Below, piece by piece: positions 16,903 through 64,000 of a stretch of 64,000 nucleotides of DNA. The DNA is from Haliotis rufescens. Taxonomy: Eukaryota. A program made the position numbers and the translations under genes. The notes under the pieces were generated by a model, which saw only the letters and a list, made by a program, of their open reading frames with translations, was not told where the DNA came from and did not search any database. The stretch is from contig NW_025964334.1 in the NCBI RefSeq assembly GCF_023055435.1, positions 37,634,001 to 37,698,000 on the forward strand, given 5' to 3'. Each line of letters begins with the position of its first letter. Within the stretch, counting starts at the first letter, position 1.

Positions 16903-17705
16903 TTGAAATGTATTCAAGAAAGTGAATATTCCACAGGAGAAAACACTGATAATAATAGTAATACTATTGATGCAAATCAGGTTGATGATGATGATGATGT
17001 GTTGAAATGTGACTCTATTATGTCATCCTCTGATGTTACAAATGGCACAGTCACTCTTATCCAAAATAATTTAGTTGCAACAAAATCTATTTTTCATATG
17101 TCTGAGGTTCCTTCTGATCACCCCCCAAAATTGACTGCATAAACAAGCAGGTAAATAATAGGGCCAATGATATTGCTAAACATAATAACATTGCAGAGAG
17201 TTGTATTCCAGAAATAATACTGGTGAAAATGATAATACTAATTATGCAAATCAGGTTGATGTTGATGCCGGGGATGACGATGATGATGATTCTGATTATG
17301 ATGATGATGATGATGTGTTGAAATGTGACTCGAATATACCATCCCCTGATGTTACAAATGACACAGTCAATCTTATCCAAAATATCTTATTTGATACAAA
17401 ATCTATTTTTCACATGTCTGAGGCTCCCATTGAACACACCCAAACAATTGACTGCATAAACAAGCAGATAAATAATAGGGCCAATGATATTGCTAAGCAT
17501 AATAACATTGCAGAGAATTGTATTACAGAATGTGAGTATTCCCCGGGAGAAAACACTGGAAATAATAATAATAATATTGATGCAAATCAGGCTGGTGATG
17601 AAGATGAAGATGATGATGATGATGTGTTGAAACCCTCGGAGACAATACTGGTGATAATGATAAAAGAAATGATGCAAGTCAGGTTGATGATGACGGAGGT
17701 GGGGG

Positions 17706-17748
<43 letters not shown>

Positions 17749-17779
17749 ACAGATAGTGATGATGCTGATGATCCTATAA
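16903..17779 (+). repeat. Asp/Asn-rich coding-like tandem repeat (~300-bp units) with (GAT)n, directly upstream of a LINE endonuclease
   Basis: The peptide GEN..NNN.IDANQ..DDDDDVLK recurs three times; two units continue CDS...TKSIFHMSE. Confidence 0.7.
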
Positions 17780-24862: not shown

Positions 24863-25486
24863 CAGTATTTCAGGGTGTCGGTTATGTCGACGTTGTTATT
24901 ACCTAAGTTTCCCGACTCCCGAGTCGGCTGATAGTTGGATATCACAACGGCTGCAGAGATAAACTTTGCTTAACAATAAACAATTAATGCTTTAAATAAA
25001 GAAACAGAATTAATCACTTACTTAGATTACCTCAATCTCATTAAAATCAGATACAAGTTCTCGCTATCGCCGAGGACATCCCATTACAGGTAACGTTAGA
25101 TGAACCTTTCGCAAACTATGACCGACGAACGTTGGTACTTCTTAATTCCGTTTATCCGACATACTCGTTAATCCGACATAATCATATGCAACCAGCCATG
25201 TCGGACTAACGGGTACATGGAAATCAAGGGGATCTTGAACATAGCATAATGTATATTCACCTTAGTCTAAATACATGTTTTAAATACATAATTGCTAAAG
25301 ATTTGATAACATCTTCATTGTTGGAATTCGGGTAATTAATCATTAATTTATCGTCTTTATGTGTAACATCTAAATTAGATATAAACTTTGTTCTCAACGT
25401 TTTACATTTTTCACAAACCTGAAACTCGTCACCAATCTCCGGTTTGGTACAATTAGTACGTATACAATTTTCTTGTTTCTACGACA

Positions 25487-25854
25487 AAGGCAGGGCGGGA
25501 CAACTTAGGAATGGCCAGGAGTCCGAACTTGACCACACAGAAGGAAGCGAGCTACAAAAACATGTTTTATATCACTGGAAAGCTCTCGAGGAGACGAATC
25601 CAAATAATGTGTGTCCCAGTGTGTTCACATGTTCATAAGCTCAAAAATTGGCTCAGAAAATGCATTACTGCAGAAATTTCTGGCCGAATTTTTTTTTTCT
25701 GCAGAAATTTCTGGCAGTATTTTTTTTTTCTACAGAAATTTCTGGCCGAATTTTTTTTTTTCTACAGAAATTTCTGGCCGAATTTTTTTCTGCAGTAATA
25801 TTTAGCAGAATTATTTTAATTCAGGAGAAATAAGATTCAATCATTGGATAGTTT
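25487..25854 (+). repeat. Left TIR (368 bp) with internal ~29-bp CAGAAATTTCTGGC repeats
   Basis: Reverse complement of 34314-34681, with about 2 mismatches seen. Confidence 0.97.
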
Positions 25855-27140
25855 AACCTGGAGTTGCTTCAAATGACCTTTTTCCTCAAAACAAACATTT
25901 TTAGTTCACATGATTACAAGCAATAAAATAAAACTAATTTCGTGAGATATTTCAAAAAAATATTTATTCACATGCTATATTACAAGACAATTTCTTGGGA
26001 GACTTTGCACTTTTCATTCTCATGAATGAGTCGTATTTTCTTGGGTGAGGTGATTTTTTCAGAGATGGGTCCTTTTCACAAAAGAAAATAGATGTATAGA
26101 TGAGTGGATCCATATTGTCTAATATAATGGATAATGGCAGCCTATACGCAGCTAGAGTTTAACTTTACAATAGAGTCTGCGGAATAAAATGTATTATGAA
26201 TGTAAATAGTGTGCTTTACTTACGTTTTCTTCTCAACATATTTGAAATGAATTCTTTTTTTCGTCTGGTCATTGAAAGCTATGTGCACATATTCTGAAAA
26301 GATATGAAAAAAACATTAAAATGCTTTTCATTTCAGTAATTAACACATTCCACAAACTTTAGGCACATGAACAAAGTAAGATAAGTGAGGTGAGTTGAAA
26401 TTGGGTTGAATGTCGCGTCCAAGATAATTGCACTTATATAGCATGTGCGTGCGTGCGTGTGAGTGTGTGTGTGTGCGTGCGTGCTTGTGCTAGTCGTCTG
26501 CATCTTCCGTTTTGTATAGGTCACTCCATAAGTTGTCAGTGACTGCATACTTGTGTAGGGGGCACTCAATGTTCACACTGTCATGAAGCTGAAATTATAT
26601 AAGGATGAGTATACTGCGAAAATTACATTGGATTAATTGGTTAAAAGAGACTTATGTATCATGTTTGGGAGAGGCATTCAGATAAGCAAAATTTGCTTGT
26701 TTGCCAATCCCTCCACTTTATGGAAATAGATATGTTTATATCAAGAGACTTCTAAACCATAACCGAACTCAAAACTAACCCCATGTGTCGTAAATGGGTG
26801 CTCTAAGGTAAAAGGATGGTAAACACGTGTTTCATTGGCAAGGGGTACTCAACCCTTATGATCGGAAAGGGGGTCCAAGGACAAAGGAGAGACCAGACCT
26901 ACTACCCAGAGGGGCCAGCCTGGTACAAGACTTAGCGTAAAGCTAGCCTAGTCTATGTCATCAGCAGCTGGTCACTGCGGCGGAATGTGGTTTTGGCGTT
27001 GCTGTTCAAGTTCGAATTTCCGATAGGCCTGTCTCCACTAAAAAAAAATAGATAAATTTTCGGACAGCATAATCTGATGTCAGATCTTAAAAAAGTCCCG
27101 AACGACTGTGAAACCATGGTAAGAAGTATTATTATTATTG

Positions 27141-27492
27141 AGGTGAGGTGAAATTGGGTTTAACGTCGCGTCCAAGATTATTGCACTTATATAGCGACGT
27201 GCGTGCACGTGTATTTGTGTGTGTGGCTGCTTGTACTAGTCCGGACTGATGCCGATTTATAGTGCTAGCTCACTGAGATACCATGCCGCAGTTTAACATG
27301 AATACCCCACTCAGACACAGTATACTGACTCCGAGCCGACCAGTCCTTGTTTCAGCCCCTTAATGCCGAGCGCCAGACAGGGTAACAACAAGTACAATCT
27401 TTTAACGTCTTTTTGTATGACGCGGCCCGGGATCGAACCCTGGACCTTCCGCTCTCCGGGCGGACGCTCTACCACAAGACCACGGAGGCGGT
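27141..27492 (-). mobile_element. tRNA-derived SINE family C
   Basis: A box TGGTCTTGTGG and B box GGTTCGATCCC, flanked by a TATTATTATTGA direct repeat. Confidence 0.88.
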
Positions 27493-27649
27493 CTATTATT
27501 ATTGAAGCAACCTTCCCAAATGTGTGTGCTGCATAAGCCGGAGTGGTTCCCCTTGAATTTCCAAAATATGAATCGACAAACGAAACGAAACATATCCAGT
27601 TGGGGGTTATTCTTTTTTAGTTTGGTGGGAAAATGATATGAAACACTGG

Positions 27650-28340
27650 GGTCTGACTGACTGATATAGGAGATTTAACGTGCGCTTTCCGACTGTAGCG
27701 TATTTCGCACACGGGCCTGGCCGGACCATTTATTGTATTCCGAAAAGGGTGAAAGTGATGTGTGCAACCCAAGAGGGGGGTTTTAGGGGTTGCTTATATT
27801 GAAGTTTTGGAATTTTTAAATTTGGAATAAATGCCGAGGTGGGTGGAGGAGGGAACTAAGGGAGCCGGGTGAGGTGGATGTTTGTATGTTTATTGGATTT
27901 TGGATTGGTAGAATAATTAGTTTTTAGATGCGCTTAATTAGGTCTGTTTTGATTAGGAATACGCCTAGGGCCTTGAAGTTTTCTGGTATATTTTGAGGGT
28001 TTAGTATTTCATCTAGAGTAGGAACCTTATTTAGATTGAGGGTGGTTTGTAGTGTGGTTCTGTGTGTTTGGTAGTGGGTGCAGTGGATGAGTGCGTGTTC
28101 TGTGGTTTCGGGTTGTTTGCAGTGGGGGCAGTTGCCTGTGATGTGTCTTTTAAGGTTTTTTAGGTGGTTATTTAGGTTCGTGTGTCCTATTTGGAGTTTT
28201 GTAATAAATCTGTCAATTTTTTTAGAGAGGTGTAGGATTTTAGGTTTTGGCTAGTGGTTTTCTGAGCACTTTTTTGATTTGGCTATTTGAGTTTTGATAT
28301 TGATTATGCCATTTTATGGTTATTTTTTGTTTGTTTACAC
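27650..28340 (-). mobile_element. I/Nimb-group LINE 3' end
   Basis: CPHCKQPETTEHALIHC..LIKTDLIKRI* followed by a 3' UTR ending CACGTTAAATC and (CAGT)n. Confidence 0.75.
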
Positions 28341-31300
28341 TTTAAATTCCCCCCCCCCCCCCCCCCTAAAGTAGCACGCTAAAGGTTTTCAATATATTCG
28401 ATAACATACTACTTAGATGCGAACTGTTTAATTGACAGCTGTTAATTGGTAACGGTCAAGCCTCAGTGAATTTGCATTGGGAGTGTGTGTGTGAGGGGGC
28501 GTCTGAAATAAAGGTGGATTCAGTCGGAATAAAGATAAGATAATGATCTCATAAATTTTATTGAAGGCTTTGAAAGTTTAGGATCGGCGAGACCGTAACA
28601 CAGAGTAATTAACAAAACGATCACGTGATCGTGGCGCTGATAGACAAAACCCACCGACCACGTGCGCGAGACAATGTATCACCGTATGAAGTGACAATAC
28701 CCGAGGATATTTAATTGCCAAGTTGGCAGGAAGTCTGGCGGCACGGCACGTACAATATGCGTCGTTTGGGTATTCTATATTGTCTCAGCACCAGCTTTGA
28801 TGGGGCAATAAGAAAAGATGATATATATGTTTATTTTAGGAAAACATTAATACAACAATTTGTTATATTAATATACATAGGGTCTATAAAGTTATTTTTA
28901 TCTAAATATTTCTAACGTTATAAATAATAGAAAACTGGCATGTAAATCATCAAAATACTGCATGGATTGGTATTTTGTAATTTTCCGTGTTTTCACTTTC
29001 ACTGATCACCACAGGCAAATTCATGGTCACATAGCTACACTACAAGTGTCGCCATACAGCTACAATAAGTTGCCTAATGTACATGTAGACAGTATACAAG
29101 TCGCAATAACACCATAGGGGATGGAGATATCTCCTTTTCAGATTAGATTGTTTGCGTATTTTTTTATCAAAAGTGGTAGAAATAAATACACTAAAATTAG
29201 ACTCTTACAAATCGCGTTTCGCATGGCAGCAGAGCCACACATTCACTGTTTGGAGTACAGGTTGTTATTTGGTTGTTGTTATATGAAATAACCGTGTTAC
29301 CAAAATTCCACGTTCTAGGATCGGCGTTTCCAGAAATAAAACAACAAATATTTTGACGTCTTACCTGTATCGTAACTGCAAGACGGTAACCAGACGCTGT
29401 AACTCTGCTGACTGCACGTGGTTCGGGATCTTTGCTGTGGCTGAAATAAAGAGTGCTATGTTTTACAGAAAGAGACCACGTTGCTTGTGCCATTGTTCAA
29501 AGACATTGTGCGTAGGTACGATTCTGAATATACACGAATATATACAAGTCACATGACAAAGAAGGTATTTACATGAAAGATATTTCAAATCTCGATGTTA
29601 GAGACCTTGAGAAATGTAGATTTAACTGAATCCAATCCGATTTAGTGTTACTATCATTCATTACAAATGGATAATACGATATTGCATTATAGAGAGGGTA
29701 ATTATAGCTACCTGAAGGAGCAACCATATGTCCACTCTTTGATGTTGCCGCCAAACCGGACGCGTTATTGTAACTCGCAAGAACACTGTGTACACAGCTT
29801 CTTTCTAAATTTGGAGTAGCGTAAGTGTGGTGAAAGAACAATATGAATGTAAGTCAGGCATGAAGTTGCACGGAGGAACCAACGTGAGACTTTATAATCA
29901 CATGGTTGTTCATATATGTTGTTTAATGCTTGATAGGTATTACCGCTTAAAAGGTGGTTTTGTATTTATAATAAAAACTGATCGTTTACATTTAACATAG
30001 AATATAAAAATAGTTTTGTCTGGGTAGCAACATAACTGTTGCATAGGGTATGTTGTTTAATGATAATACTATATGAAAATTCCTCGAGCCAGCTGACTTA
30101 CACTATGGATAGTGTACAAGGCAACAGTTATAGAACATCACGTGATAAAGTTGATGGAAACGGCAAAATATTTATTTACAATATATGTGTTTCCAGGGGA
30201 AGAGCCTGTTACAAAGTCTGTGTCTAAAAAAAAGTAAACTCGCTCCTTGTCGGACAAAACTGAATGTAATTAAGTTAACTACCTATGTACAGTATCAGTG
30301 GAGTACTTGAATTAATATCAAATTGTAACCCGAGATGCTGGTGCCACACCTTATTACGTGACCACCCAGTGAGGCGTAAACACTCAGGGGCATGATATAC
30401 ACCCTTGTGTTTGATTTGATATACCAATCAGCCGTGGACGCCCGACCATAAAAATGGTATATATAGATTTAACCCTAATCAGGTATCGTTAAATATCGTT
30501 AAATCGTCGAGAACGTTCTGTCAGACGATCAAACGATAACAATTCAACAAGTCGGTAAATCACATCGAAAACCCAAGTTCTGGTCGCAGTGAGAAGCTCT
30601 GGATACCTTGAGGAGGTTTCACCAGCTCTGCTTCAACAACGTTGACATGGGTAAGGCATTTTATTCTATTTTTGTACACCAAACACTGTATATATCTTGA
30701 AGAACCTTTGCCTTCTGTTTGGATCATGGTTTCTTTATGAACATATTCACTGAACATGTTGCTACCCTATTACAGATCTTACCAACGTCATCAACAGTCA
30801 AGGCAGACATCTTTCTTCAAGAAATCTGCCCAAAAGGAAAAACACTGAAATTGGTAAGTAATGCTTATGTGCAATGTCGTTAACTATAGTTCATTTATTG
30901 CATCGGCACTATTAGGTAGAGTTGAGCTACGAACGCGAAAATAAACTGGTACGGCGAATGTAGGGGTGAGGTACTCCATCGGCTTCGTTGCGCTGGGTTT
31001 TTTTACCACCACCGACTGTGTTGCCAATTAAAATTTCGTTTCGGAATCAAAGCACGGTGCATGTTTTTTTTTTTTATCAAAATGTCAACATGATCTAGGA
31101 AAGGAAGAGCCAGGGTTCTGCGAACATACGCGGATTGTGTAGCCTTTATATATATATGGTTTCGCGTGGCATTATATTGGTGTTACGTACGTAGTATACC
31201 AGGTAAGTGTTGCCCTCGTTGCCCACAGGGCCATGACTTAATTAGGGTGCGAGTTGGTGGGTGGCTCGGTCTACTCGGTGGTGCTAACAGTAGGCGTAGG

Positions 31301-31532
31301 GCTAGGCAAGTTTACGAGACATACTCTCGCGTGGACCTAGTGATAGAACCCTTTCTTCGTTTTGAGAGGACATGTCGATATCGAATTTCGCGAATTTTCT
31401 TCTCGAATTTCTGGGCAACAATGCAGTTTACCGGGCGCAGCCCGAGCTCTACCATCCGCTCAATTACCGCGCTATAGTGCCACGCTGTCTCGTTATACCG
31501 TTACCGTGCCTCACGCTCTGGTGACTCTCGCT

Positions 31533-31705
31533 TCACGATCCAACACCCGTTTTCGGTCTTAGGGAAACTTACACATCTTTACAATCAAACACCCGTTCTC
31601 GGTCTAAGGGAAACTTACACATCTTTACGATCAAACACCCGTTCTAGGTCTTAGGGAAACTTACACGTCTTTACGATCCAACACCCGTTTTTCGGTCATT
31701 AGGGT
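31533..31705. repeat. ~45-bp tandem repeat (about 3.5 copies)
   Basis: Units of ACGATC(C/A)AACACCCGTT..GGTCTTAGGGAAACTTACACATCTTT. Confidence 0.9.
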
Positions 31706-32147
31706 TAGCTGGCTTTGGGCAAGGGTTAGCCATAAATTCTTACTTTTTCAAGCGTTAATTCAGTTAATCCCATTGGTTGTTGACATAAACAATTGCGGGT
31801 GTGGTTTCAAGAAAAGATGAATGGGAGAGCGGGCCGTGACGTCACACGCATGCGCAATTCATTGTTTACTCAATTACACATGCATGTCAATGGTGATTCT
31901 AATGACCTGTTAAACGAGCACTGATTACTTGTGATAGGCCTGTGGTCCAGTGGTAGAGCGTCGGCTAATTAACGCATTAATTAGCAGAGCCGGTGAGTCG
32001 GGGAAGCGCGTTCGAGCCTCAACAGCGCTAATTGGATCTGAAAAAGTGCGCACTTATCCCGATTTAATGGGTCATTATTGTGTAATTGGTATCCAAGCAC
32101 AACATGTCTTTTTGTGATATTTCCTTTCCAGTTTCCAGTGAATTCTA

Positions 32148-32317
32148 TGCTTGTCTTAAGAGGCGACTAACACTATTGCGTGGTCAGGCTCGCTGACCTG
32201 CATTGATGCTCATGATATGAATCTCTGAAATGTCTGGTCCAGATTCGATTAATTACAGACCGCTGTCATATAGGTGGAATATTGCTGAATGCGGCAGTAA
32301 ACAACAAACCAAACCAA
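32148..32317 (+). mobile_element. SINE family A, partial
   Basis: TGCTTGTCTTAAGAGGCGACTAA..GGAATATTGCTGAATGCGGC. Confidence 0.8.
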
Positions 32318-33185
32318 AACATATATTACTGTCTACATATCCTATTGGTAGGGAGTTATGTAGATGTTTATTTAGAAACCAGTGGAGCTTAGTATCCACA
32401 GTGCACATATATGGGTTACGTTATTGTAGTTTGTCCAATATTATTAGTAAAGGATGTAATGGGATTTGTTTTGTAATGGGATCGTGCCATGTATGTCAAG
32501 ACATTTGTTTGTACATTATATTTGTAACACACGTTTAGAAGGATAGAAATTTATCTTTGTCTTAGCTAAATGCTTGGTACGGGCCTGTTGAATAAATTCA
32601 ATGTTTGTCTGGTAGGCTTGTCTAATTTTGGAGGAATTGTGGATTTTTGAGAATGGAAATTGGCAATTGTTATATTTGTATGACTATCCAATTACATTAA
32701 AGTTGCAATTTATGTATTGTTCAAATATTTATTTGACATTTCCAGGACCAGTCAAGCTGCAAGACTTTGTCGGCCAGTCAAAAGTGGACGCTGCAATCCA
32801 AGGTATCACTTTTAGTGCTATCATGAAGATAGTTATCAATGAAATTATTGGTATATGACTCCACATACAATATCATGTATAGCATATTTATTCCTTGAGG
32901 CTATACTATACAATTCAAAGTAAATGCTGAAGTCACATGTGGTTAATATTTTTATAATTTATGTAAATTGTTTTAAACCACATTAGAATTGTTTTGAAGC
33001 AAGTATTTCATGTCCAGTTGCTCATCCTAAGTATAAAAGAATCTGCACACAATGTTGAAACTATTTAAATGCACAAGATTGATTTTTCTCTCAATATTCA
33101 AATCAATATTCTGTAAAAATAAACAAGTTTTGTACAATTTGATTTGTTTTCATAGTGATAATACTGATGTAAATACTATTTTCAG

Positions 33186-33444
33186 GTGAAACTTTCTTTC
33201 TCATGGTGGGGCACACGCATGAAGATTTGGGTCAACTGTTAAGTGTTTAGTGCAAGGGAACTTAGACAGAAGCCTGCAACAACCCGCGATGCCCTCCTTC
33301 AAGATTGGGGACATCCGGACACCCACCACCAAGCTATCAGACTTCAAGCCCTTCATGCCTGCCCCAAGGGAAGCGACAACCTTCCCAACTAAAGTTCAAG
33401 AGGCAATAGAGAAGAACAATGAAAAACTGCAAAAACAATCAAAG
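33186..33444 (+). pseudogene. Frameshifted exon of a DDE/D transposase (GHTHEDxDQxFS family, Sola-like)
   Basis: After the acceptor TTTTCAG: VKLSF/LMVGHTHEDLGQLLSV, then in another frame ARELRQKPATTRDALL, then LSDFKPFM. A GT donor follows 33444. Confidence 0.65.
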
Positions 33445-34313
33445 GTAATTTCAATAAATATTGCATTTCTTTTGAAATATGTATTGTGATGTGTAATATT
33501 AGGGTTAGTCAGCGTTACTTAGAGTATGTGTAATGGGGGCAGAGAAACAACCCAACTTCATGAGGTTACTATTTTTGCTTTTATTGTATAGATGCACTGT
33601 GATTTTAATTATGTTCTCATATTCTTTACATTTTTTTTCTTTACTTTCAGATCACTCTGACAAAGCACCGAAGACAAGCGTCAGTATCAGAACAATAAAG
33701 AAGGAGCAGCAAGTTTTGCTGAAATGAACATATTTTTTGTCTAAGCTATGTGGCTGAGATATTGCCGAGGATTGCATTGCAGGAGTTTTGTACTTTGTAT
33801 GTTTTTGTTTCTTAGTAAAGCTGTGTATTTAGAATTGTATATATATATACATATATAAGATGAGATGTGCACAATGAAATTTATGAAACAATATATGCAG
33901 TTTTATTGTAAAATCTTGGTTGTGTTCTATTTTTTTCCATGTCTGAAGTTAACCTACTTTCAGAGTACCGTATATCACATGTAGGTTGTTTCTTTGAATT
34001 CCAACTGGGGATTATATATTTGGTTGGCCCGATGGAATAATTATGAAATTTATTTTTTGAGAATCACATTCACCTTTAATGTTGTACACTTCAAAGTCGT
34101 CAAAAGGCCATTGAAGATGGTCACTGACATTCTCATAATAATTTAGATAATTATAGGGTAAGCTCAAGGTTCAATGATTTGCATCTAACTAGTATACAAA
34201 GGTATGAGGCCAACATGTTGTTCCATTGTTTAATTCGAGTGACGTCAACTTTTCTTGATAAATTTGGTAAATATAATTCCAAGATAAATATCTTCAATTG
34301 CTGAATTCAATTC

Positions 34314-34681
34314 AAACTATCCAATGATTGAATCTTATTTCTCCTGAATTAAAATAATTCTGCTAAATATTACTGCAGAAAAAAATTCGGCCAGAAATTT
34401 CTGTAGAAAAAAAAAAATTCGGCCAGAAATTTCTGTAGAAAAAAAAAATACTGCCAGAAATTTCTGCAGAAAAAAAAAATTCGGCCAGAAATTTCTGCAG
34501 TAATGCATTTTCTGAGCCAATTTTTGAGCTTATGAACATGTGAACACACTGGGACACACATTATTTGGATTCGACTCCTCGAGAGCTTTCCAATGATATA
34601 AAACATGTTTTTGTAGCTCGCTTCCTTCTGTGTGGTCAAGTTCGGACTCCTGGCCATTCCTAAGTTGTCCCGCCCTGCCTT
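34314..34681 (-). repeat. Right TIR (368 bp)
   Basis: Reverse complement of 25487-25854. Confidence 0.97.
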
Positions 34682-34685
34682 GACA

Positions 34686-35480
34686 TCTATTGACATGGAA
34701 GTTATGGAGAAATATTCTTAATTTACAAAGAACTCTCAATAGAGATTTATCTTGTGAAACAGTTAAATATTTTTTTCTGGTTGTAACAATGATTTGATAC
34801 TAGCATAACGCTTGAGAAAATGTGAAGAGGCTTGCTGGTGCCAGTTTTGTTTACAATTGATATATCTGATAATCTTTGTTGAACTGTATTTAAAAAATAG
34901 GTTTTTTTCATTACCGGTGTTTTGTGAGATCCATACAAAGGAAAATCCAGAATTAAGTAATACACTTCTTACACCAGACACCCAGTTCGTTTCCCCTTCA
35001 TCGTCTAATTGCTGTAGAATTTTGAAACATTGAAATGGGTACCTGTAAACTTCCATCTTTAATAATTTTATCCAATATTTAAGAACACGCAGCTGGCTAT
35101 GTACATATATGCTACAGCGACGAGTTAAGTACTGCCTCATTTGACGCATATTTACCAATGCATACAAATCGCTTACTAGCGATGGTCTTACAAGCCACGG
35201 ACAAATTTAGTCATGGCGACATTATGAATCATTATTATTTATAGTAACTAGCAACTTATAAATGTTTATCACCAGAAATCCAATTTTCCTGCTTCGATAC
35301 AATTCCTTGATTCTAAAAATAATACCATTGGTTTTCTCAAGGTTTACTTGTGAACCCCTCTTAAACAGAAGGACCGCAATACATTAAGCTGTATCTGCAA
35401 GCCTACCACATAGAGTAGGACACCAGAGCAACATCATCCGCGAACAGCAATAGCATAATATCTGTAATGTCTTGTGTCAC
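34686..35480 (-). mobile_element. CR1/L2-group LINE RT and 3' remnant (continues at about 25330-25482)
   Basis: MLLLFADDVALV, RVLKYWIKLLKM..RYP..C and NWVSGVRSVLLNSGFSFVW. Confidence 0.8.
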
Positions 35481-55440: not shown

Positions 55441-56115
55441 CGAGTTGCATGCAGACGATTTCTAATCGTGAATAGCACTCTAAACATTGTAGGGGTCATG
55501 TGGGTGTATATTTCATTTCTTACCCCAATCGGGGGCACAGTTGTCTGAGGCGGCGCGATTCGATGTGCAGAGTTGCGTCCCTTGGGCACGCGAGAAACCT
55601 ATGACGGTGGGTTCGAATCCCGGTTCGCCCCGATTATGTTTCTAGGTTTGTCAGCACCATACCCGTGCTCGTGGGTTTCACCGAAGTGGTAAACGTCTGA
55701 GACCTGCATCACTTCGGACTTTCCTCCCACATTAAGGTGACACGCCGTGATATAACTGGAATACTGTTAAAAGCTCACTCACTCACTCACTCACTCACAC
55801 CCCAGACTTCATAAAACCCACTTTCACTTGTATTTACCCCATATCACCCAACCATGGGTTTTTGTGTACAAAGTATTGCAGAAATGTTTGATGATTAGTT
55901 CGACATAATTAAACTTATCAAACTTCCTTCACTTTTCAGCTTCATCACAAAAGTCAAATGTATACTTTCTTTTGCCCATCAGTGACTTCTACTACATATA
56001 TTTGTTGCAAAGTCTTGATATTGAACATGTTGATGTATCTGGAGAATACCCATCTGACAGTATCAAAAGTAGGTCATGGTTACCTACTTTCTGGAGGTTG
56101 ATTTTTCTGTTTTGG

Positions 56116-59027
56116 GTATCTGCTACAAATACGACTTGTAGGTCTATATTTTTACAATATTTCATGTGAAGATGCCGAGCCCCGTGGTCGGGATTAAACT
56201 CCTTACCGCTTGGTCCGCTGGCAAAGAAGAAGTGCAGGAGATATAACCAACGTTTAATTATCGATATTTTTCACCGCTGAATTGTAAGACGATTGCATGT
56301 TAGTGTTGAAGTGTGATGCGGTCATGATTAGATTTCACAGTCTATATTTTAGGTTCATTATGCTATACGACTTAGGAACGACATAGGAACAATATATACT
56401 TGTCAGGTGAATTTGAGGCATGTCAAAATGGGCTTGGGACGGGGGCTGGTTTGTTTTTGCCGTGCATCGCAAACACCTTTCTAGTTGTAGGGAACGTTTC
56501 ACTTGGGACAGATAACATATTTCCGAGGTGTACGGCAGTAGAAAAGAGTTCCACGCGCATATAGGGGGGATGCAATGCTGAAGGTCGGGGCCACGTTTCA
56601 CAAAGTAGCCCCAGCACTACAGTTATCATAAGTCAACTTCATTAACATGGTCGGTGAAACAAGGCGATTGTACCCATCGTATCAACTTTTATCTCTCGAT
56701 TCCAGCCCATGCACATATGCAACTGTTTATGGGGACAAACGTACTAAATTTAATTTAAACTGAATCCGTTAGCGTGTGGTTTTAAATGAAAACGTCGGAG
56801 GTATTAAATGACGATAACCTGTCTCTAAATTGTAAACGAAGTACGTTTATCTCTATACTACTATGACGAATTTACGAACGATTTTATAAGGAACTCTCTC
56901 ATTGTGTAGCCTCGATGTGTGATGCGGTCACTGCCTTCTACGACAGTTATGAAAAGAGGTTTAGGATTTTGTCCACAAGCTAAATGAAACAAAGTACATA
57001 TCAAAGCAAAAGAAGTAACATTAAATGTGTTTAATTCAAGATTTATAAATGGGCGTTAAGTGATTTTCCATCAATTTTCGGAACATACACCATCAATTAA
57101 GCCATACGCCTCCATCACATATTTGGTTTCCGCCTGATCGGCCTGCATTGTGATGCTAGCATTATCGTTGTGACGCTAGTATTATCAGTGTGACGCTGGT
57201 ATTATCATTGTGACGCTGGTATTATCATTGTGAAGCTAGTATTATCATTGTGACGCTGGTATTATCACCGTGATGCTTGTATTATCATTGTGACGCTGGT
57301 ATTATCATTGTGACGCAAGTATTATCATTGTGACGCTGGTATTATCATTGTGCCGCTTGTATTATCATTGTGACACTAGTATTGTCATTGTGACGCTAGT
57401 ATTTTCATTGATACGCTAGTATTATCAGTGTGACGCTGGTATTATCATTTTGAAGCTAGTATTATCATTGTGACGCTGGTATTATCATTGTGACGCTAGT
57501 ATTATCATTGCAACTCTGGTATTATCATTGTGACGCTAGTATTATCATTGTGACGCTTGTGTTATCATTGTGTATCTGCTACAAATACGACTTGTAGGTC
57601 TATATTTTTACAATATTTCATGTGAAGATGCCGAGCCCCGTGGTCGGGATTAAACTCCTTACCGCTTGGTCCGCTGGCAAAGAAGAAGTGCAGGAGATAT
57701 AACCAACGTTTAATTATCGATATTTTTCACCGCTGAATTGTAAGACGATTGCATGTTAGTGTTGAAGTGTGATGCGGTCATGATTAGATTTCACAGTCTA
57801 TATTTTAGGTTCATTATGCTATACGACTTAGGAACGACATAGGAACAATATATACTTGTCAGGTGAATTTGAGGCATGTCAAAATGGGCTTGGGACGGGG
57901 GCTGGTTTGTTTTTGCCGTGCATCGCAAACACCTTTCTAGTTGTAGGGAACGTTTCACTTGGGACAGATAACATATTTCCGAGGTGTACGGCAGTAGAAA
58001 AGAGTTCCACGCGCATATAGGGGGGATGCAATGCTGAAGGTCGGGGCCACGTTTCACAAAGTAGCCCCAGCACTACAGTTATCATAAGTCAACTTCATTA
58101 ACATGGTCGGTGAAACAAGGCGATTGTACCCATCGTATCAACTTTTATCTCTCGATTCCAGCCCATGCACATATGCAACTGTTTATGGGGACAAACGTAC
58201 TAAATTTAATTTAAACTGAATCCGTTAGCGTGTGGTTTTAAATGAAAACGTCGGAGGTATTAAATGACGATAACCTGTCTCTAAATTGTAAACGAAGTAC
58301 GTTTATCTCTATACTACTATGACGAATTTACGAACGATTTTATAAGGAACTCTCTCATTGTGTAGCCTCGATGTGTGATGCGGTCACTGCCTTCTACGAC
58401 AGTTATGAAAAGAGGTTTAGGATTTTGTCCACAAGCTAAATGAAACAAAGTACATATCAAAGCAAAAGAAGTAACATTAAATGTGTTTAATTCAAGATTT
58501 ATAAATGGGCGTTAAGTGATTTTCCATCAATTTTCGGAACATACACCATCAATTAAGCCATACGCCTCCATCACATATTTGGTTTCCGCCTGATCGGCCT
58601 GCATTGTGATGCTAGCATTATCGTTGTGACGCTAGTATTATCAGTGTGACGCTGGTATTATCATTGTGACGCTGGTATTATCATTGTGAAGCTAGTATTA
58701 TCATTGTGACGCTGGTATTATCACCGTGATGCTTGTATTATCATTGTGACGCTGGTATTATCATTGTGACGCAAGTATTATCATTGTGACGCTGGTATTA
58801 TCATTGTGCCGCTTGTATTATCATTGTGACACTAGTATTGTCATTGTGACGCTAGTATTTTCATTGATACGCTAGTATTATCAGTGTGACGCTGGTATTA
58901 TCATTTTGAAGCTAGTATTATCATTGTGACGCTGGTATTATCATTGTGACGCTAGTATTATCATTGCAACTCTGGTATTATCATTGTGACGCTAGTATTA
59001 TCATTGTGACGCTTGTGTTATCATTGT
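56116..59027. repeat. Tandem duplication of a 1456-bp unit (56116-57571, 57572-59027)
   Basis: Identical ORF translations offset by 1456 bp and identical order of minisatellite variants. Confidence 0.97.
57146..57571. repeat. 20-bp minisatellite ATTATCATTGTGACGCT(G/A)GT
   Basis: About 21 tandem units. Confidence 0.97.
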
Positions 59028-59290
59028 GACGCTAGTATTATCATTGACGACTCTTGTATTATCATTGTGACGCTTGTATTATTATTTCCTCCCACATTAA
59101 GCTGACACGCCGCGATATAACTGGAATACTGTTAAAAGCAGCGTTAAACCCAACTCACTCACACTCAGGCTAGTATTATCATTGTGACGCTAGTATTATC
59201 ATTTGTGACGCTAGTATTATCATTGTGACGCTAGTATTATCATTTGCGACGCTAGTATTATCATTGTGACGCTAGTATTATCATTGTGAT
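58602..59290. repeat. 20-bp minisatellite, second array, interrupted by a SINE 3' end at about 59086-59167
   Basis: Same unit as 57146-57571. The insert matches 55720-55800. Confidence 0.93.
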
Positions 59291-59778
59291 TTCGCAACAT
59301 ACAAAAGTAATGACACCATACCATTGTGACTGTAAACATAACGTCAAAGTGCGCAACACTTCCCGCCAAATGCATTATTTCGCAGGACGTATCTGGTTTA
59401 ATTTGATGATACATCAAAATAAAATATTTTAAGAGTGTTTTCATAAACATGTCTTCGCTTATGTTTGATGAAATCAACGTTTAAAAAGTGCTACCGCCTG
59501 CTGTCTGTTAAGTAGTGCGATTCATTGATACTTTCATACGCCGAATCAGAAACAAAAACTAACTTAATATACTACCCCTGATTGCAGTTGACTGACCAAT
59601 CAGAATCGAGTATCTAGTACAGTCATGGTAGAATATATTGTTGAAAGGGTGGTAATCCCTAATCACCTCATCAATCCACCCTCGTGGGTGATAATGCAGA
59701 ACGATTTTCAGAACAAGGGAAAAGTTAGCAAAGCTCACATACCCCGGCCTGCAGCTCTCCATAGCAACCAAATACATA

Positions 59779-60842
59779 TATTGAAAACAAATATGTTCCT
59801 AGTTTGTGACAGCATTCGGTATGAATGCGTAATGATGGGCACACTGAATGGAAGGTATGGAATTCACAAATTGAGAGCATTTGACTGTTTATATGTACGT
59901 ACATGGCAGATGCAGTCAACACTTTTTCATAGTTATGTCAAAGATCTTGGATTTGGGGGTTTGCAAGTGTTATAAACCAATTTCAATTTCTGCTTGGGAA
60001 TTAAGTGTGTGTGTCAAAATGTTTCTTGCCAAATACAAAATGATGTTTTAGTTCTGCTCTTGATATGTGTAAGTTTCAGAAATCCTTAATAGCAAACAAC
60101 ACCTTACTAGAAATAGGCTGATATATGTATAAAGTTAAACTGTAAAAAATACTTGAACTTTTTTAAGTTATGTTTTAGAAATTACGCTTATAGCCAAAAT
60201 GAGTCACGTTTCCATGGCAACTGAAGCAAATAAAAACATCAAATATATCCTATATCAAAAGGCATCACTCCTGTACTTGACTGATCCGTGTACCAAGTTT
60301 GGTTAAAATATATTAAACGTTTTTCAAGTTCTTCTCCGGAAATGAACCTTACCCAACAAAATGAGAAAACGAAAAAATATAAACATCAAATATACCTAAT
60401 AGGAAAGGCCCCACTCTTGTATTTGACTGATCCGTTTACTAAGTTTTGGTTAAAACATATTCAATGGTTTTCGAGTTCTGCTCAAGAAACGAAAGTGTGA
60501 CTGGCGGACAGACAGACGGACGGGCGGCCAAACCTTTATAACCTCCGACAAAATTTCTTCGATCTCCTGCACCTGCGATATTTGACTGCACAAAACACAA
60601 AACTCCGGTTATCTTCACAGAAAATAAGCAAACGAAAATTTATTTTAACAGAACATGAAAAAGAATAGGCTTACAAAAAATTGTGAAAAAATATATATAA
60701 AATCTGTTCAAAAGTTACACGGAAAATTATCTTTTGCGTGAAATTAATGTTCAATAAAACAAATAAGGCAAATCAGGTTATATTGTGTAATTTAACCATG
60801 CCATTGTGTCGGTCCCTTTTATCTTACTCGTGGTGTATCATC
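59779..60842 (+). repeat. Left arm of a ~1.06-kb inverted repeat, containing a Helentron/HINE-like segment
   Basis: Reverse complement of about 62520-63582. Contains subrepeats TACCAAGTTTGGTTAAAA and GGACAGACAGACGGACGG..TATAACCTCC. Confidence 0.9.
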
Positions 60843-61034
60843 CTAGTTTCACCACGTGCTTGTCTGCTGCGTCGAAACATGACACTGATTGACCGATTTA
60901 AGCCACACACTTCATTTCTTGGAAATAGGGATCTTTCAAATGTATTAATGTCAACAATTTTGCACATGATGAACAAAGTAAGATCGGTGACAAATTAATA
61001 TTTATTAGAGCTGAAAATATTCTCATTTAACATA

Positions 61035-61265
61035 GGCAAAGTAGACAATTTATTGATAACAATTTCTTTAATTAAGGTAAAGGCGACGTTTAGGTATAGA
61101 ACCGTATACCGTTGTCAAGCATCCTTACTGCAGCATCGCACACTGTCCTCATTTTGTGTAGAACTGTTCTTCATCGCAGAGAATATGCCGAGCCCCCTGG
61201 TCGGGATCGAACTCCTGACCGCTTGGTCCGCAGGCAAGAAGCGCTATCACGCCCCCAAGTAGCAA
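61035..61265 (-). mobile_element. Short element with a tRNA-like head and a 3' hammerhead-like module
   Basis: B box GAGTTCGATCC at about 61205-61215 and an HHR-like motif at 61077-61128. 61035-61120 is homologous to 40229-40320. Confidence 0.55.
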
Positions 61266-62519
61266 GGAAGAGGAAGAAGTGTAGGAGATATAACCAACGT
61301 TTAATTATCGATATTTTTCACCGCTGAATTGTAAGACGATTGCATGTTAGTGTTGAAGTGTGATGCGGTCATGATTAGATTTCACAGTTTATAATTTAGG
61401 ATCATTATTCAACGTTGACTAAGACCCCGAAGGGCGTTGGAACATGGGCCGGTTCATGATAAGGGTCATTATTCAACTGTTTGGGTTCATTTTTCAACGT
61501 TGAAAACAGAACCGGTTCATTTCTCATGGCGGGTAGAAATTCAACGTTACACCGGCGATCGAGTCAGAATTTACCATCTGGGACCTGGAAAAATTACTGA
61601 GATAATGTTGTTATTATCAAAACAATAGTTTAACATAATCGACAATCAGTGTCTTTCAGCGGCGAAGCTGGGGCCATTCACAAGTGTAGGCAACTTTGGA
61701 GATATAAATTGCTTAATTTAGAGCGGACACTAGCGGGATCAGTTTCCAGGTAGGTCCAGGCTTGTTGACCTCTGCGGCCGGGATCATTCTCGAATTCAAC
61801 GGTTTGTCCTGTGTTCGCTGGGTATTCTGTTACTGTTACACGCTGTAACTTATTTAACTTCAAAATGGCTTAGAGGGAGTATGGTGTACATGCTGTAAAT
61901 ATTGGAATGTGACGACTTCCAAATTTAAACTTTAAATTTACCCAGAAATCTATTCGTGAAAGTATTCAGCGTGAAAGCAACAAACCACAAAGAAATGGCA
62001 TACTACTTACAATTGTATCATAAAATGAACTATGTTTACAATCAATACAAATTACTGCAAAGTTATTACAATGGCAGTTCACAGTATAGTGCCAGTACAA
62101 AATGCATTAGTAATACAAGGACAAGGACAGAATGAAATATGAGAGCAGTGGTAATAATATTCACTTGGCAGCAACAGTGGTCAAGCTTCTAATATAGACC
62201 TAGACGGGATATCCAGGCTGAAAACAACGCTCTTCACACAAAAGCTGGCCATGATGTAATGTGAGATGATATAGTCATGCGATAGCCTCACTTACATAGT
62301 CTAAATATATCCCAGAGTCTTCTAAACAGCGTTGGACTAGTCTAGTAGTACTAGAACATTCCAGAAGAGTGACCCCGCACGCATCTCAGTATAGTCACTT
62401 CCACACCACTGCTTACATTAGATAGTACTACATTCCTGACAACCAATCATTGTCAAAACACAATGCAGTCAGATGTCCCGAACACACAAAAGTAGGCCAA
62501 TTCAAACTGTTGAATTCGA

Positions 62520-63582
62520 GAATGACACAGCACGAGTAAGATAAAAGGGACCGACATAATGGCATGGTTAAATTACACAATATAACCTGATTTGCCTTTT
62601 TTGTTTTATTGTACATTAATTTCACACAAACGATAATTTTCCGTGTAACTTTTCAACAGATTATATTTTCACATTTTTTGTAAGCCTACCCTTTTTCATG
62701 TTCTGTTAAAATTAATTTTCGTTTGCTTATTTTCTGTGAAGATAACCGGAGTTTTGTTATTTTTGAGCAGGCAAATATTGCAGGTGCAGGACATCAAAGA
62801 AATTTTGTCGGAGGTTATAAAGGTTTGGCCGTCCGTCCGTGTGTCTGTCTGTCACTTTTGTTTCCGGAGCAAAAACCATTGAATATGTTTTAACCAAAAC
62901 TTAGTAAACGGATCAGTCAAGTACAAAAGTGGTGCCCTTTCCTTTTTAGGTATATTTGATGTATGTATTTCTTCGGTTTTCATTGAAAATTTGACTCATT
63001 TTGTGGGGTAAGGTTCATTTTCGGAGAAGAACTTGAAAAAACGTTTGATATGTTTTAACCAAACTTGGTACACGGATCAGTCAAGTACAGGAGTGGTGCC
63101 TTTTGCTATAGGGTATATTTGATGTTTTTGTTTGTTTCAGTTGCCATGGAAACGTGACTAATTTTGGCTATAAGCGTAATTTCTAAAACATAACTTACAA
63201 AAGTTTAAGTATTTTTTTACAGTTTAACTTTATTCATATATCAGCCTAATTCTAGAAAGGTGTTGTTTGCTATTAAGGATTTCTGAAACTTACACATATC
63301 AAGAGCAGAACTAAAACATCATTTTGTATTTGGCAAGAAACATTTTAACACACAACTAAATTCCTAAGCAGAAATTGAAATTGGTTTATAACACTTGCAG
63401 GCCCCCAAATCCAAGATCTTTGACATAACTATGAAAAAGTGTTGACTGCATCTGCCATGTACGTACATATAAACAGTCAAATGCTCTCAATTTGTGAATT
63501 CCATACCTTCCATTCAGTGTGCCCATCATTACGCATTCATACCGAATGCTGTCACAAACTAGGAACATATTTGTTTTCAATA
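62520..63582 (-). repeat. Right arm of the ~1.06-kb inverted repeat
   Basis: The ORF peptide KTNMFLVCDSIRYEC..GGLQVL is identical on opposite strands. Confidence 0.9.
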
Positions 63583-64000
63583 TAGACAGACAGACAGACA
63601 GACAGACTGTTTATTTGAGTCTCACCTCACAGAAATAATTACATAAATACATATAAAAGGACATAAAAGTGAGCCACCCGTTAAGGGTTACGAGAGACTT
63701 AAAATGTATCACATGTATGTACAGCATAAATATATTGGTGTAAAAGGGGTATGAAAATATACCACCCGTAACTAGCCATATAAAATAATTTTTCTTCGTT
63801 GGAGAATAAAAAAGCAGGTTTTGGCTGTAAAATATACATAATATTTAAAAAGTACAATAAGTTTATCCGTATTGCATAACTCTAGAAGGTTGGGATAGCT
63901 AAAACTCACCTTTTCGTATAAACTTTCACGCAAATCATCGTACACAGGGCAATCAAGTAATACATGACATTCATCTTCAATACTTTCCTTACACTGAAAA
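63583..64000 (-). mobile_element. CR1/L2-group LINE 3' end with (CTGT)n tail
   Basis: CKESIEDECHVLLDCPVYDDLRESL on the minus strand, with (GACA)n at 63584-63607. Confidence 0.8.

Follow-up and report, generated by a model that had tools for sequence, protein, structure and literature searches.

A young 9.2-kb abalone transposon is probably the deleted remnant of a 25-kb Sola1-related element that pairs its transposase gene with a predicted Tudor partner

The window analyzed here is a 64,000-nucleotide stretch of Haliotis rufescens DNA (RefSeq assembly GCF_023055435.1, contig NW_025964334.1, positions 37,634,001 to 37,698,000 of the forward strand), which contains at 25487..34681 a 9.2-kb transposon with long terminal inverted repeats (TIRs). 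This element is a young, non-autonomous insertion. It is probably a shortened form, moved in trans, of a 25-kb Sola1-related element with two genes, one for the transposase and the other for a conserved partner with a predicted Tudor module for reading methylated histones, which would steer insertion or counter silencing. Target choice and escape from silencing are poorly known for cut-and-paste transposons of animals, and the accessible literature holds no worked-out mechanism for Sola elements. 

The window element belongs to a young family

As a first-pass annotation of this DNA had claimed, the element is bounded by 368-bp TIRs (left, 25487..25854, plus strand, terminus AAGGCAGG; right, 34314..34681, minus strand) that differ by 2 mismatches, with termini AAGG..CCTT, and GACA lies directly outside each TIR as a target-site duplication (TSD; 25483..25486 and 34682..34685). 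When the flanks are joined over one TSD, they read through as the C terminus of a long interspersed element (LINE) on the minus strand, an older multi-copy sequence that occupies 34686..35100 and continues to the left of 25483. Of 11 paralogous LINE copies, 10 show no alignment gap where the flanks were rejoined, and the eleventh has no coverage there. The element is thus a true insertion into the LINE. Each TIR also carries four copies of a 12-bp palindrome with 31- to 32-bp spacing (25671..25776 and 34392-34497). These eight matches are the only ones in the whole window, against 0.01 expected, and the arrays are likely protein-binding sites.

A genome search with the TIR yielded 128 candidates, and the 40 that were scored are all 99 to 100% identical to it. 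Examination of 41 stretches gave 30 TIR pairs; the other 11 had no pair in the DNA examined and are outside the count. An exact 4-bp TSD flanks 23 of the 30 pairs, compared with 2 of 870 in a crossed-flank control, and the seven pairs without a TSD, one of which (C57c) is an inverted duplication, stay in the denominator. The 4-bp duplication is thus shared by other copies, and these counts together with the ends of the window element rule out a chance pairing of TIRs and TSD. Other TSD lengths were tried and rejected: 2, 3, 5, 6, and 8 bp fit 3, 3, 0, 0, and 0 of the 30 pairs. The 23 TSDs are AT-rich (28% GC), none is TTAA, and the termini are AAGG in nearly all copies.

Most copies measure 8.3 to 9.9 kb and some 12 to 16 kb. 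Divergence from the window copy is 0.17% over the full length for its closest relative, L062, about 0.8 to 1.3% for the main subfamily, and 5.9% for the 25-kb parent described below. Among the copies compared, only L062 shares with the window copy a short interspersed element (SINE)-like insertion at 27141..27494, which argues that jumping continued after that SINE had inserted. The window element is a member of a young non-autonomous family, and its initial description as recently mobile and non-autonomous holds.

The inverted duplication, a 30.6-kb stretch of G000:C57, has two TIRs whose outer flanks are mutual reverse complements, and possibly arose by aberrant transposition.

A 25.3-kb parent contains two divergent genes

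At G000:C26:122951-148212 (TSD CTAG), a TIR pair delimits an element of 25,262 bp. Its TIRs, about 225 bp long, are 96% identical over 225 bp to those of the young copies, and they enclose two intron-rich genes arranged head to head, with starts approximately 1.1 kb apart. The window element is collinear with this parent, from which it differs by deletions of 7.4 kb, 4.7 kb, and 360 bp and by smaller changes. A frameshifted exon with a GHTHED motif had been recognized in the window copy from the start; the idea that it is unrelated cargo is ruled out by the presence of a whole GHTHED transposase gene between the same TIRs at C26. The interior, initially proposed to be several kilobases of cargo, is for the most part what deletions have left of the two-gene body of the element and not captured sequence. 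Thus, the window element is probably a non-autonomous derivative of the two-gene parent.

The remains of both genes can be followed in the window. Of the partner gene, on the minus strand, it retains exon 1 (29365..29493, start codon at 29493), the 5′ part of exon 2 (26492..26588, cut by the 7.4-kb deletion), and the last exon (26220..26293), which encodes the end of the second Tudor unit and the stop codon. On the plus strand are transposase exons 1 (30647-30650), 2 (30776-30853), and 4 (32746..32802), the frameshifted remnant of exon 13 with the GHTHED motif (33186..33444), which has small deletions and the internal deletion of about 360 bp, and the last exon (33651..33698); exon 3 and exons 5 to 12 are deleted. 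The 1.15 kb between the two start codons (29494..30646) is likely a shared divergent promoter. The nested SINE and LINE noted earlier are both present, the SINE at 27141..27494 and the LINE, one of the reverse transcriptase/RNase H kind that is longer in the parent, as an inverted 3′ piece at 27653..28348 (minus strand). Three upstream and one downstream transposase exons, the three partner exon remnants, and the TIR palindromes had gone unseen in the first-pass annotation. The element contains no tRNA gene and no Rfam match.

The transposase is probably related to Sola1 and its gene is likely open

The transposase gene occupies the right half of the parent. Its 14 exons add up to approximately 695 codons, and the assembly shows a single frameshift in them. 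One exon alone matches PF25273 (DUF7869) with 89.9 bits, and protein P0002 does so with 162 bits, the curated cut-off being 26 bits. Among 34 homologues, the catalytic residues D238 and D364 are invariant and D322 is nearly so. The structure model of a homologue (pLDDT 72) matches integrase and transposase cores (best Z score 9.2, root mean square deviation [rmsd] 4.1, 143 residues aligned). The conserved Asp residues and the predicted fold are those of a DDD transposase with an RNase H-like core, as found in Sola, in line with the suspected relationship to Sola1. The sequence comparison with Sola1 covered PF25273 and open reading frames (ORFs) of the same genome: 402 columns of the GHTHED profile align with one PF25273 ORF that lacks introns (probability 95.8), and the third Asp residues coincide. 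The intronless PF25273 ORFs are probably Sola1, to judge by their motifs. In a tree made by a quick method only, with P0160 excluded and C24 without a row, the GHTHED proteins form a long separate branch far from four such ORFs of this genome. The closest named proteins to the element's transposase are from Haliotis. We found no mention of DUF7869 in the literature searched.

Sequencing runs gave evidence on the state of the C26 gene. Of its 11 introns covered, all are spliced in run X17, 9 in X18, and 8 in X15, compared with none in the DNA-like run X2. The base missing from the assembly is present in all four runs. A transposase killed by this frameshift is thus unsupported, and splicing together with the missing base indicates that the C26 gene is likely open. 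RNA-like contigs with the joints of the deleted form indicate that the derivatives are transcribed too.

A further feature concerns exon 13 in the derivatives. All 25 non-autonomous copies read have a 1-bp deletion at its start (in the window, within 32746-33444), which restores the GHTHED frame after splicing of exon 4 to exon 13, a splice present in X17. The predicted product has 67 residues in the window's subfamily and is longer in older subfamilies. This restoration may be due to chance, through one ancestral event, or may produce a short regulator.

Other DUF7869 proteins were also noted. At both L191:1-2265 (G000:C31) and L188 lies an ORF without introns that matches PF25273, has 754 codons or more, and is near-identical in its core at the two places; it likely belongs to a young, ordinary Sola1-type element. 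Amphioxus DUF7869 transposases (P0010, P0153-P0155) carry PF02902, an Ulp1-type protease domain, and liverwort and metagenomic DUF7869 proteins (P0189-P0220) carry PF26133.

The partner gene is conserved and encodes predicted Tudor barrels

The partner gene fills the left half of the parent, on the minus strand, with 18 exons that have AG/GT borders. Its intact homologue in H. asinina, P0017, has 497 residues. From the N to the C terminus, the structure model of this homologue (pLDDT 74.6) consists of a beta region, a helical domain, a coiled coil, and a pair of Tudor-like barrels. The family profile matches the Tudor domain of PHF20/PHF20L1 (E value 1.8e-6), and the model matches the tandem Tudors of FXR2, FMRP, BAHCC1, and 53BP1 (for the latter, Z score 9.7, rmsd 3.6, 92 residues aligned). 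The abalone and oyster partners have the W-Y-F-D cage of PHF20L1 Tudor2 (PMC13285377), as judged by eye and from the profile alignment. Profile, fold model, and cage residues thus predict a Tudor beta-barrel with an aromatic cage, as in Royal-family readers. A single-sequence search of the PDB with P0018 returned no Tudor, which only the family profile found, and neither the partner nor its N-terminal half had a usable match in the ESM Atlas.

The helical domain has no Pfam name. A Pfam scan of the partner and its homologues yielded no ParB or methyltransferase match; the domain was not folded alone, and a ParB-like fold is possible.

The ratio of nonsynonymous to synonymous substitution rates (dN/dS) is 0.42 for the partner (bootstrap interval 0.28-0.65), from comparison with eight further copies in this genome, and 0.40 for the transposase (0.30-0.54, over 11 copies); the comparisons share the C26 branch and are non-independent. 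The partner gene is under purifying selection.

The two genes are paired in other elements and probably in other animals

The head-to-head order is also found at C445, C12 (twice), and C1, the latter with TIRs and the TSD ATCC. A sister family in this genome has different TIRs, which measure about 300 bp and have AACAC termini. Its 8,360-bp copy (G000:C68:25782414-25790773, L222-L223; TSD ACAG) carries exons for a distantly related Tudor partner and for a transposase approximately 40% identical to the first, again in divergent order. The TIR of this sister family has at least 40 matches in the genome. A 4-bp TSD flanks all five of its true pairs, four of them checked by eye or script, a sixth stretch being no pair. 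No full-length copy of the family was found in the genome.

Gene numbers run along the scaffold in annotation practice, and 19 partner homologues from abalone, oyster, mussel, and amphioxus have such numbers (the C26 model was excluded). In seven cases, the number of a DUF7869 gene is no more than two away: one in H. rubra (124289914/915), four in S. cucullata (134243211/209, 134259225/223, 134244644/645, and 134253283/285), one in M. galloprovincialis (143062813/814), and one in Branchiostoma (144860600/601). For six of these seven pairs, the listed contig sizes are the same for both genes. In O. edulis and H. asinina the two genes are on shared contigs, and near-identical copies of both occur on two contigs of H. 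asinina and three of S. cucullata. We infer that close numbers outside this genome reflect physical neighborhood, and the numbering indicates that oysters, mussels, and amphioxus also have the gene pair. Thus, the second gene is probably a standing part of this transposon lineage.

Proposed mechanism and alternatives

In the mechanism that we propose, the transposase would recognize the TIRs, probably through their phased palindromes, cut the element out, and reinsert it, with a 4-bp stagger, where the target is weakly AT-rich. Deleted copies keep both ends and would use a transposase supplied in trans, for which the C26 gene would be the simplest source. The partner would be expressed from the shared promoter region as an accessory factor, by analogy with MURB and the VANDAL accessory proteins (PMC12973397, accessible part), and its Tudor pair would engage methylated chromatin, so that insertion is steered or silencing countered. 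Whether the partner acts in this way, by chromatin tethering or anti-silencing through its Tudor module, is evenly balanced in our judgment.

Several observations weigh against parts of this reading. X15, X17, and X18 come from three studies, and their RNA-like status was guessed by the tool, no run being recorded as RNA. The C26 partner is broken three times in the assembly, by a frameshift in exon 6, a stop in exon 11, and a broken last exon; the annotated model P0145 ends at the first break. No intact partner gene was found at seven other matching places in the genome, though very young copies exist, so that the partner may be dispensable for jumping or the breaks may be recent. Full-length Pfam Tudor scores of the partners lie under the curated cut-offs. 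The partners of mussel and amphioxus contain a single Tudor-like unit each, and the latter protein has no Pfam match. In the accessible part of PMC13285377, the tandem Tudors of PHF20L1 bind DNA and show no mark selectivity on nucleosomes, so that the cage is no proof of mark reading. Twelve of the 19 numbered partner homologues have no close-numbered transposase in the lists, which weighs little because the transposase lists are incomplete. Finally, the amphioxus gene model P0256 fuses partner and transposase, which suggests a tandem order there.

Of the other explanations, one assigns the main role to the helical domain, through which the partner would bind the palindrome arrays and bring in chromatin or repair factors of the host, with a secondary role for the Tudor module. 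The TIR palindromes are indeed phased, and the helical domain, not the Tudor, is common to all partner homologues. However, no fold match was found for this domain, the whole-model searches being filled by Tudor matches, the transposase has a winged-helix-like part of its own in the prediction, and the sister-family TIR has only one clear palindrome. We consider this explanation rather unlikely.

It is also unlikely, in our view, that the C26 transposase, perhaps with its partner, is a domesticated host gene and that the young copies were moved by another source, unassembled or lost. The left terminus of C26 has G instead of A at base 1, and the transposase is approximately single-copy in X2 (depth about 10 to 15 in its unique 5′ and middle parts), two observations that fit an immobilized gene as well; its spliced transcripts also appear under three organism labels with few differences. 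Conversely, TIRs and a TSD still flank the gene, the catalytic Asp residues are retained, and the TIR identity to young copies and the near-identical copies of both genes in H. asinina and S. cucullata described above also argue for a transposon.

Least probable is that the second gene is a passenger, captured once from the host by an ancestral element and without a role in transposition: the partner is broken at C26 while the transposase is likely open, it is deleted in all young copies, and other Sola elements carry other genes (in the accessible sources, a ParB-methyltransferase in Sola1-1_Ec32 and Fanzor in Sola2), but its dN/dS equals that of the transposase, the two abalone families, about 40% apart, have both retained it, gene numbers pair it with the transposase in three mollusc groups and amphioxus, and the partner and transposase trees of eight pairs share well-supported groups, a weak point in that these groups also follow host kinship.

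More tentatively, and with some doubt on our part, the two-gene element may represent an old lineage of giant Sola1-like transposons in gastropods, bivalves, and cephalochordates that has its own histone-mark reader gene, tethering the transpososome or shielding the element from silencing. If true, it would be a cut-and-paste counterpart of chromodomain-guided retrotransposons. The apparently open, spliced transposase, the dozens of young substrates with defined ends, and the conserved partner with a predicted, mutable reader pocket make a testable two-component system. The analysis also assigns DUF7869 proteins a transposase role and gives a family of Tudor proteins called “uncharacterized” in mollusc and amphioxus annotations a transposon origin. 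Multi-exon transposons of such size escape ORF-based surveys; a bivalve survey (PMC10294476, accessible part) required an ORF of at least 300 residues.

Other features of the window

Three features lie outside the element. At 59777-63584 there is a long degenerate inverted repeat, with arms of at least about 1 kb in several pieces (77 to 98% identity) around a center of about 1.7 kb. A direct duplication of 1,456 bp with 100% identity at 56112-59326, which contains 20-bp tandem arrays, may be a recent event or an assembly artifact. Repeated Asp/Asn-rich, coding-like units are spaced by about 92 to 336 bp at 16905-17764.

Comparison with known systems

In Sola2 and Sola3 elements, the termini are GRG or GAG, and the Sola3 target is TTAA; in the abalone family, nearly all copies have AAGG termini instead, and none of the 23 TSDs is TTAA. 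Sola elements have a DDD transposase, a 4-bp TSD, and TIRs of 11 to 1124 bp, according to the accessible parts of PMC10741241, PMC3845634, and PMC3627910. The abalone element shares all three with the Sola1 group, its TIRs of 368 bp (window) and about 225 bp (parent) falling within that range. In contrast to that group, as far as the accessible descriptions go, it has 14 transposase exons, a second gene, and a separate GHTHED branch. The AWWT target, called a hallmark of Sola1 (PMC3845634), is found in 3 of the 23 TSDs, and the preference is likewise lacking in Sola1-1_Ec32 of Ectocarpus (PMC12477816).

The accessible text of PMC12477816 describes Sola1-1_Ec32 as a 21.5-kb element with termini AACCG-CGGTT, a 282-bp TIR, and an opposite-strand gene for a 1104-residue protein with ParB-like and DNA methyltransferase parts. 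The two-gene abalone element has in common with it a size above 20 kb, a TIR of about 300 bp, termini starting with AA, a weakly biased 4-bp TSD, nested transposable elements fixed among copies, an opposite-strand second gene, and non-autonomous derivatives. Unlike that of Sola1-1_Ec32, the abalone partner has about 500 to 525 residues, with an unnamed helical domain and tandem Tudors. The first-pass annotation had called the termini unlike the usual GAG/GRG; the AAGG ends are as described, but AA-type termini with long TIRs are known from Sola1-1_Ec32, so that the termini are not the novel part.

Harbinger with its Myb partner and Kolobok with KolX are two-gene DNA transposons as well. They and MuDR and VANDAL belong to other superfamilies, with other TSD lengths and unrelated accessory proteins. 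Common to the abalone parent, MuDR (MURA/MURB), and VANDAL is a transposase and an accessory gene within one TIR pair; MURB- and VANDAL-type accessory proteins bind the transposase or counter silencing (PMC12973397, accessible part). With PHF20/PHF20L1, the best sequence match of the partner C terminus, the partner shares the W, Y, F, and D cage positions (PMC13285377), but only the Tudor pair, unlike these host NSL-complex proteins with PHD fingers.

Gypsy-10_Ec32, which has a C-terminal Tudor domain, was called the first reported transposable element with a Tudor in a 2025 paper (PMC12477816, accessible part). It too is a mobile element with a Tudor-family reader; however, it is a long terminal repeat retrotransposon with the Tudor fused to Pol, whereas the abalone reader is encoded by a separate gene of a cut-and-paste element of animals. 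We found no Tudor-bearing Sola element in the accessible literature; Repbase, Dfam, subscription journals, bioRxiv supplements, and the Ectocarpus FASTA files were outside this scope and may hold one. Sola1 elements that are large, carry two genes, and have AA termini were already known; what is unusual about the abalone element is its conserved Tudor partner.

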